Made by a program: the position numbers and the translations under genes. A DNA stretch of 64,000 bases from Escherichia coli (GTDB lineage Bacteria; Pseudomonadota; Gammaproteobacteria; Enterobacterales; Enterobacteriaceae): NCBI RefSeq assembly GCF_003334405.1, contig NZ_QOWM01000005.1. One strand, 5' to 3'. Shown piece after piece: positions 57,263-57,878 of the stretch. The notes under the pieces were generated by a model, which was not told the DNA's origin, did not search any database, and saw nothing but the letters and a program-made list of their open reading frames with translations. Within the stretch, counting starts at the first letter, position 1. Each line of letters starts with the position of its first letter.

Positions 57263-57272
57263 AATTCATATA

Positions 57273-57302
57273 AACGGACCTCCACGGAGGTCCGTTTTTC
57301 GT
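57273..57302 (+). terminator. rho-independent terminator of pheU
   Basis: hairpin AACGGACCUCC-ACGG-AGGUCCGUU followed by UUUUCG. Confidence 0.7.
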
Positions 57303-57878
57303 TTCAGGACGCCACGATTTAAGCGTTCTGCCTCCAAATCAATTCTACCGAACTCAACCAGATTCTCCCCACATCACCAGCAATTTGCGGGCATATCCCA
57401 ATTCGGGAAAATTTGTTCCTGAGCTATAGCACTAACTGACGTGAAATGTCGTGCGGCCCCGTGATGCTGTTGAACGTCAAATGACGTCATCAGGAGCGTA
57501 ACGCATCCATAAAGCACAACACCGGTCTGAACGGCGACTGATGAGATTTTCTGAATGAGAACAAAGAGAAATGTATCAGTTCGCTTGCTCATGCAAAGAC
57601 TAACAATCCATTAAAATAGTAAGTGCTCCGGACAATTTTCCATGGATTATTTTCTGAACATTTTTCTTTGGCAAAGATGATGAATTTTGATGGTAAGGAA
57701 TATTACTTCTGGTTCTCAGTAAAATCCTTTCGTAATACTATGTAATCAAGAAGTTTATGGCTGGTAAAAATAACGTCTTGCATTCACCAATAATATGTAA
57801 ATAAACCCATCTATAGATGGTAAAAATAGGTTGTGGCAATTATCATTGCATCATTCCCTTTTCGAATGAGTTTCTATT

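Follow-up and report, generated by a model that had tools for sequence, protein, structure and literature searches.

What lies between the tRNA-Phe gene pheU and cadC in E. coli, and how did it come to be there? The 3' end of pheU is an attB integration hotspot and a textbook site for genomic islands. The initial annotation of this locus described the site as apparently empty, lacking both an intact integrase and a direct repeat of the tRNA end, and allowed that a degraded integrase might be hidden in the spacer; if the spacer resembled no integrase in any frame and were identical in all related genomes, it would simply be the regulatory region of cadC. We conclude, with a probability of about 0.9, that the spacer between pheU and cadC is an unoccupied attB that still holds, as a neutral fossil, the remains of the integrase module of an ancient P4-family island.

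The window analysed is a stretch of 64,000 nt from E. coli (RefSeq assembly GCF_003334405.1, contig NZ_QOWM01000005.1), and its positions are used throughout. Three genes frame the locus:

57187-57262, + strand: pheU, tRNA-Phe(GAA), called by ARAGORN and by Rfam (tRNA, 68.3 bits) and identical to K-12 b4134
57879-59417, + strand: cadC, a 512-aa ORF (K-12 b4133), the right boundary of the spacer
ending at 57080: dicD (yjdC), a TetR-type regulator, from the ORF list

The ARAGORN and Rfam calls and the cadC ORF start at 57879 agree with the coordinates given in the initial annotation and with its 616-bp spacer (57263-57878). Positions 55313-60813 match E. coli K-12 MG1655 (NC_000913.3, 4359000-4364500, reverse orientation) with 0 mismatches over 5,501 bp. 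GC averages 39.6% in the spacer and 51.1% in the window, and it varies along the spacer: 47-48% in 57263-57459, 41.7% in 57460-57622 and 32% in 57623-57878. An Rfam scan of 56400-58400 at permissive thresholds returned only the tRNA and one chance-level match.

Upstream of the tRNA, the sequence of 57148-57186 read directly contains a likely pheU promoter (TTGACG, a 17-nt spacer, TTTAAT) and, immediately next to the tRNA, a GC-rich discriminator (GCGCCCC). The -10 hexamer of this promoter lacks an A at position 2, which is why the consensus scan did not report it. Elsewhere in the window, positions 27153-27452 hold the glyV-glyX-glyY cluster of K-12, a tandem array of three minus-strand tRNA-Gly(GCC) genes that is unrelated to the pheU-cadC spacer.

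The ORF list contains no intact integrase in the spacer, in line with the initial annotation. As a query for damaged copies we used the intact 421-aa integrase that lies directly after pheU in E. coli S88. This protein has Arm-DNA-bind_3, Phage_int_M and Phage_integrase domains and shares 55% identity with phage P4 Int across 97% of its length. Searched against the spacer with tblastn, it gave three collinear pieces, in order and all on the + strand:

57426-57458, + strand: aa 1-11 (IALTDVKCRAA against MALTDAKIRAA)
57460-57543, + strand: aa 359-391
57545-57616, + strand: aa 397-420

Bit scores of 37.0 and 32.3 were obtained among these pieces, and identities in the 3' part are 15/24 and 19/33. 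The maximum among 200 shuffles of the spacer was 22.3 bits (mean 13.3, sd 4.1), against 37.0 for the best real piece. The 5' piece alone is weak (tblastn E = 0.075). It immediately precedes the 3' piece in the correct order, and the E. whittamii copy of the locus retains the ATG and reads MALTDAK, which strengthens it. At the nucleotide level the 3' part aligns to S88 int with 126 of 162 aligned nt identical (78%), and the similarity ends at the stop codon. The relic starts 163 bp after pheU, in the same orientation as the tRNA; the corresponding distance to int in S88 is 197 bp. Similarity to an integrase is therefore present on the + strand, and the initial annotation's alternative, no similarity in any frame, does not hold. 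Judged by its sequence, the relic is a homologue of a P4-family tyrosine integrase gene, and it can be divided into two parts:

57426-57459, + strand: 5' piece of the integrase relic, about 11 codons, with the start changed from ATG to ATA (tblastn and DNA alignment to S88 int)
57460-57622, + strand: 3' piece, the pseudogene yjdQ (b4654 in the K-12 annotation), codons ~359-420 of the 421-aa integrase

The alignment to S88 int gives the damage directly, position by position:

57426, + strand: start codon ATG changed to ATA
~57459/57460, + strand: internal deletion of ~1.04 kb, joining codon ~11/12 to codon 359
57485, + strand: +1 insertion
between 57503 and 57504, + strand: 16-nt deletion, removing codons 373-378, including that for Tyr378
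between 57543 and 57544, + strand: 14-nt deletion
57617-57622, + strand: stop codons TAG/TAA

With the ATG lost, the +1 insertion, the 16-nt and 14-nt deletions and in-frame stops, no intact ORF is left. Without codons ~12-358 the three-domain P4-type architecture is incomplete, and the deletion takes in the HGFR box (aa 341-344 of S88 Int). Tyr378 of S88 Int is the presumed catalytic nucleophile, judging by the canonical HxxR...H...Y spacing. The relic encodes none of the catalytic residues (R, K, HxxR, H/W, Y) in frame, and we read its sequence as that of a gene incapable of recombining anything. A stitched 64-aa relic peptide had no match among the PHROG families at E <= 0.01, as is expected for a fragment so short and damaged; the basis of the assignment is thus the position of the relic together with pairwise and nucleotide homology. 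The relic resembles P4 Int and the intP4-type integrases of the GI-pheV and GI-pheU islands in homology, in lying directly 3' of a tRNA-Phe gene and in orientation. Compared with the intact intP4-type genes, it keeps only ~17% of the gene, has lost the start and carries three frame-breaking indels.

In the reference E. coli genome the 3' part of this relic already has an annotation, and it is in that sense a known, ordinary feature. The K-12 record for yjdQ (b4654; 4362191-4362353, minus strand) maps to window 57460-57622 on the + strand and is the same object. In other strains PGAP labels the same segment 'tyrosine-type recombinase/integrase', frameshifted and missing the N-terminus. The K-12 curators call yjdQ a P4-like integrase remnant. 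Among the papers searched, none mentions yjdQ or discusses the relic, and the site itself is confirmed there as a known hotspot. The yjdQ annotation covers only the 3' piece; the start-codon region (57426-57459) and the DNA between it and the tRNA (57263-57425) fall outside the feature. The suspicion of a hidden integrase remnant was thus well placed, being supported by the yjdQ annotation, the PGAP call, tblastn and the nucleotide alignment. The description of the spacer as only AT-rich non-coding DNA and one short ORF was right about the ORF and wrong in its 'only', as an integrase pseudogene is present on the + strand.

Beyond the stop codons of the relic the spacer has a different character. 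Two further features concern this DNA and the strand opposite the relic:

57623-57878, + strand: region upstream of cadC, taken as promoter and 5'-UTR, 32% GC (from GC and from conservation only where cadC follows)
57374-57592, - strand: 72-aa antisense ORF, probably not a gene (ORF list; not annotated in K-12)

The 256 bp before cadC are 84-93% conserved in the Escherichia clades, only where cadC follows, and show no similarity to integrases or to any of the island DNA examined. We take them to be the putative cadC promoter and 5' UTR. A promoter scan of the spacer region returned a single minus-strand site, below the shuffle expectation, and no consensus promoter above chance. AT-rich regions bound by H-NS have been mentioned for the cadC promoter (PMC5430869). 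In two genomes (NZ_CM132951.1 and NZ_CP080133.1) an IS1 lies inside the pheU-cadC spacer, where 57187-57900 matches in two pieces spanning ~1.4-1.5 kb.

Could the whole spacer be a cadC regulatory region with no mobile ancestry, or the 72-aa antisense ORF a real gene? AT-rich, promoter-type DNA does lie directly upstream of cadC, and the ORF exists as the initial annotation described it, on the strand opposite to the relic and the tRNA, and is intact in K-12 and in Escherichia sp. E1V33. Against this, the integrase homology lies far above that of shuffled sequence, which excludes a purely regulatory origin, and the DNA next to the tRNA is shared with island attL junctions. The ORF is unannotated in K-12, and in E. 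whittamii and a third divergent Escherichia genome (L007 in our scan) indels split or truncate it. Being broken in two of three sister-species genomes it is not conserved, and we rejected it as a gene; it is probably an accident of the relic's complementary strand. We regard this explanation of the spacer, in either form, as very improbable.

The fossil of an island integrase module is larger than its coding remnant. The DNA between the tRNA and the relic includes two features:

57263-57425, + strand: integrase 'leader', the DNA from tRNA to int start codon of pheU/pheV-type islands, highly conserved over 57263-57376
57272-57297, + strand: intrinsic terminator hairpin of pheU, an 11-bp stem and 4-nt loop followed by a T run (terminator scan)

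Positions 57263-57376 differ from the S88 segment between attL and int at 5 of 114 nt (95.6% identity), and weaker similarity to the S88 leader runs on from 57376 to the int start. A 111-nt piece of this leader (57266-57376) was counted 9,958 times, spread over 5,414 of the 5,426 complete E. coli genomes; the median genome has 2 copies, and K-12 has one. The extra copies probably sit at pheV islands, which have been reported to carry the same integrase as pheU islands (PMC7686366). A generic tRNA-Phe flank was considered and rejected, as the pheV of K-12 is an identical tRNA, unoccupied, with an unrelated flank and its own hairpin. The absence of the leader there shows that 57263-57376 is the constant attL-side leader of the island family and not a generic trailer. 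It seems probable that the whole 360 bp after pheU is island-derived, well beyond the 163 bp annotated.

The origin of the terminator is less simple. The hairpin folds at -19.4 kcal/mol (z = -3.1; none of 200 shuffles folds as well), and the scan found no other convincing terminator. The first 37 nt 3' of the tRNA are 95-97% conserved in Citrobacter, Leclercia, Klebsiella and Raoultella, and in Trabulsiella the DNA directly 3' of the tRNA is 90% conserved over 42 nt. We take the terminator and the leader to be probably of island origin. The hairpin is also kept in genera where no integrase follows it, as in C. amalonaticus, and the terminator may therefore be native rather than island-derived.

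A SELEX peak at 4360430 in older K-12 numbering falls at window ~57400 on a 1,977-bp coordinate offset that we assume to apply. It is a genomic SELEX binding peak in the cadC-pheU spacer, listed in the promoter table for the heat-shock sigma factor RpoH (PMC5493296). At ~57400 it would be near the relic's former int promoter and start region, at the coarse resolution of the array.

The pheU site is in active use in the E. coli population. We compared the junction across 5,426 complete E. coli genomes of all phylogroups and counted each form directly. A query of tRNA, spacer and the start of cadC matched at >=80% coverage in 5,214 of them. When continuity with dicD was also required, 3,736 (69%) matched at >=80% coverage and have an uninterrupted junction; the junction is split in ~31%. 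The window has the uninterrupted order dicD, pheU, spacer, cadC, with no strain-variable cargo and with cadC directly after the spacer, so the site is indeed empty here, as first described. The split junctions, the S88 island and the integrases found after pheU in five other species uphold its standing as a hotspot, and yjdC-cadC has been listed as a pheU island site (PMC7686366).

Split junctions also locate the crossover. The ranking was sampled evenly, and the sample holds 18 split rows, of which 15 begin at 57240, one begins at 57214, and two are the attL half ending at 57376. In S88 an island of ~63.7 kb (NC_011742.1, 4621513-4685048) occupies pheU, with its intact integrase adjoining the tRNA. 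Its attR reads TTCGATTCCGAGTCC-GGCACCA, is preceded by unrelated island DNA and is followed by the relic and cadC, unchanged. The splits at 57240 and the S88 attR together define the core as the last 23 nt of pheU:

57240-57262, + strand: attB core, of which islands inserted here have a second copy at their far end

In keeping with this core, occupied genomes match the spacer from 57240 onwards, and a 19-23-bp repeat of the tRNA end has been reported for pheV islands (PMC11537424). The S88 site and the window share tRNA, core and leader, and in both the relic leads on to cadC, in S88 after attR; the window differs in lacking cargo, intact integrase and attR. Living islands insert upstream of the relic, which predates them. 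The attL match in S88 and other occupied genomes extends to 57376, and that of attR starts at 57240. Since incoming islands bring this leader with them, pheU islands are flanked by repeats of ~137 bp (57240-57376) that are ~95% identical, not by repeats of 23 bp.

The cargo of the S88 island includes a second Orn/Lys/Arg decarboxylase between two basic amino acid/polyamine antiporters. Further modules are a grp locus for a glycyl-radical propanediol microcompartment, a CbtA/YeeU toxin-antitoxin module, a pair of SLATT-domain genes and the anti-phage system Qat.

A search for the other end of the ancient island gave nothing. The last 23 nt of pheU have no second copy at <=3 mismatches anywhere in the window, and the initial annotation was correct that the tRNA end is not repeated. 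In the 27.7 kb of K-12 downstream of pheU, no attR-like copy rose above chance at <=7 mismatches; the best other match has 7 mismatches, the level of shuffled sequence. That no attR relic of the ancient island was found in the window or in these 27.7 kb is a point against the preferred reading.

How old is the relic? We scanned loci anchored on DicD, one genome per species (80 loci). E. whittamii, Escherichia sp. E1V33 and the third divergent Escherichia genome all have the order pheU, leader, relic, cadC upstream region, cadC. The junction of the large deletion is seen directly to be the same in these three and in K-12, and the small indels differ by lineage: E. whittamii and the third genome lack the 16-nt deletion of K-12, and the latter has a 28-nt deletion of its own. 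The relic thus predates the split between E. coli and the cryptic clades. K-12 and its sisters are 0.84-0.93 identical over the relic and 0.75-0.85 identical at four-fold degenerate sites of dicD and cadC, so constraint is weak at most. The relic is an old, near-neutral fossil that diverges at about the synonymous rate.

These comparisons bear on the idea that the stub is a recent scar, left when the K-12 lineage lost a living island by imprecise deletion. Internal deletions in islands are common, and K-12, as a laboratory strain, has known deletions. The same spacer is, however, present in 5,214 of 5,426 genomes, including occupied ones, where it lies outside attR, and the deletion junction is common to three other Escherichia species or clades. 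We rejected a recent K-12 scar on the strength of this shared junction, and its probability is close to nil.

The relic may be inert as a gene and still have been put to use, either as a ~137-bp repeat for RecA-dependent excision or gene conversion, or as an H-NS-bound region that tunes cadC. The leader is ~96% identical to the leaders of living islands and only 86-91% identical to its orthologues in sister species, while for the coding part of the relic identity to living int is only 78%. A leader closer to living islands than to its own orthologues is not accounted for by simple vertical decay, and the pattern suggests that the leader later recombined with incoming islands across the 137-bp repeat. 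The repeats flanking pheU islands in S88 and other occupied genomes speak for a use of this kind, the pattern of identity is as expected if the copies recombine, and H-NS at AT-rich cadC promoter DNA is mentioned in the literature (PMC5430869). Against a selected role stand the near-neutral divergence, lineage-specific indels of 11-28 nt inside the relic, and the absence of a conserved structure or Rfam family and of promoter-like sites above chance. The relic itself is not especially AT-rich (42-48% GC). On balance we consider it unlikely that the relic serves either purpose.

Not all Escherichia have this relic. In E. albertii NBRC 107761 (L010:10783-11462) a leader 85-91% identical is followed by a different integrase stub of ~45 N-terminal codons, including GAGMFLLVHP, and then by unrelated DNA to the contig end. 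On the other side of pheU, E. whittamii (L005:10668-12683) and E1V33 (L006, same position) have a 671-aa ORF (~2.1 kb) between dicD and pheU. The gap in K-12 is only 106 bp, and window 57077-57137 is the corresponding short form. Many other genera have 1.5-2.3 kb extra here, placing pheU at ~12230-12980 instead of 10707 in the extracted loci. The upstream side of pheU is therefore variable too.

The dicD-pheU arrangement is kept in Citrobacter, Salmonella, Enterobacter, Klebsiella, Kosakonia, Leclercia and others, and what follows pheU differs among them. Intact P4-like integrases, 55-77% identical to S88 Int, lie directly after pheU in C. youngae, S. enterica arizonae, Leclercia sp., Trabulsiella odontotermitis and K. 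spallanzanii, and partial integrases follow it in five more loci. In Enterobacter and Kosakonia yjdF lies directly after pheU; in K-12 it is 17 kb from pheU. This varied content makes the downstream side of pheU a family-wide variable spot.

Decayed integrases at pheU are recurrent. There is a stub of aa 1-55 in Raoultella planticola (L084:13257-13421), one of aa 1-89 in Intestinirhabdus alba (L064:13052-13306), and a frameshifted integrase in Leclercia sp. with aa 3-188 spread over three frames (L063:11419-11964). An integrase remnant has also been described in a tRNA-Phe island of Salmonella arizonae (PMC3408504). The stubs of R. planticola, I. alba and E. albertii are N-terminal with other truncation points and appear independent of the E. 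coli relic, which is unusual among them only in retaining both ends of the gene.

Did the ancient island leave more behind than its integrase? The relic may be the left end of an island whose cargo, cadC-cadB-cadA-dtpC-lysU-ghoST and possibly on to yjdJ, became fixed in Escherichia. Only 256 bp separate the int stop from cadC, and the two have the same orientation. In available sequence of up to 10 kb, cadC was not found downstream of pheU in any non-Escherichia locus sampled, and in Enterobacter and Kosakonia the gene next to pheU is yjdF, which in K-12 is 17 kb distant. GC3 is low in cadC (0.39), cadB (0.49), lysU (0.45), ghoST (0.36-0.39) and yjdJ (0.40), compared with 0.55-0.66 in flanking genes. 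E. coli strain E69 (CP089930.1), 96.1% identical upstream, loses homology at 57264, the end of the tRNA, and resumes at yjdJ-yjdI, and an O8:H- strain with the LEE at pheU lacks the same ~10 kb (PMC3408504).

Several observations weigh against a cargo origin of these genes. No attR-like repeat was found at the far side of the block, and the DNA upstream of cadC is unlike any island DNA examined. The gaps in E69 and the O8:H- strain are explained equally well by deletion or replacement, and low GC3 is only suggestive, with cadA (0.54) and dtpC (0.57) near normal. We therefore hold the cargo origin as a tentative possibility, doubtful on present evidence. If it were true, cadCBA, a module for lysine-dependent acid resistance, would along with dtpC, lysU and ghoST be domesticated pheU island cargo whose integrase has decayed.

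The E69 locus deserves a description of its own (L009:10783-14054). After the tRNA end comes unrelated DNA with a 219-aa ORF and a 386-aa ORF resembling a C5 cytosine methyltransferase, probably a restriction-modification cassette. Beyond this lie yjdJ-yjdI, 88% identical, and an ORF of 1,322 aa that resembles an autotransporter. E69 has neither the relic nor any of the cadCBA-dtpC-lysU-ghoST block, and no integrase is present at the locus.

Returning to the preferred reading of the spacer as an empty attB with the neutral fossil of an integrase module, we infer the following order of events at pheU. Before E. coli and the cryptic Escherichia clades separated, a P4-family (intP4-type) island would have entered pheU at its 3' end in their ancestor. 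The insertion would have exchanged the native tRNA 3' flank for island DNA comprising int, its leader and the terminator hairpin. Codons ~12-358 of int would then have been lost in an internal deletion of ~1.04 kb, and small indels and the start-codon mutation would later have completed the inactivation. The remnant (57263-57622) presumably codes for nothing now and drifts neutrally. The parts likely to function today are the attB core (57240-57262), the pheU terminator and the AT-rich cadC promoter region (57623-57878). The attR of the ancient island, if any of it is left, would be a degenerate copy of TTCGATTCCGAGTCCGGGCACCA.

As a feature of the genome the relic matters little beyond bookkeeping, being annotated in the reference genome at a site that is well known. 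For annotators, the fossil retains both gene ends and the leader and is larger than the 163 bp annotated. For the delimitation of islands, the ~137-bp flanking repeats can mislead the calling of boundaries, and they may permit homologous excision. The age of the relic, before the split between E. coli and the cryptic clades, dates the first use of the pheU site.
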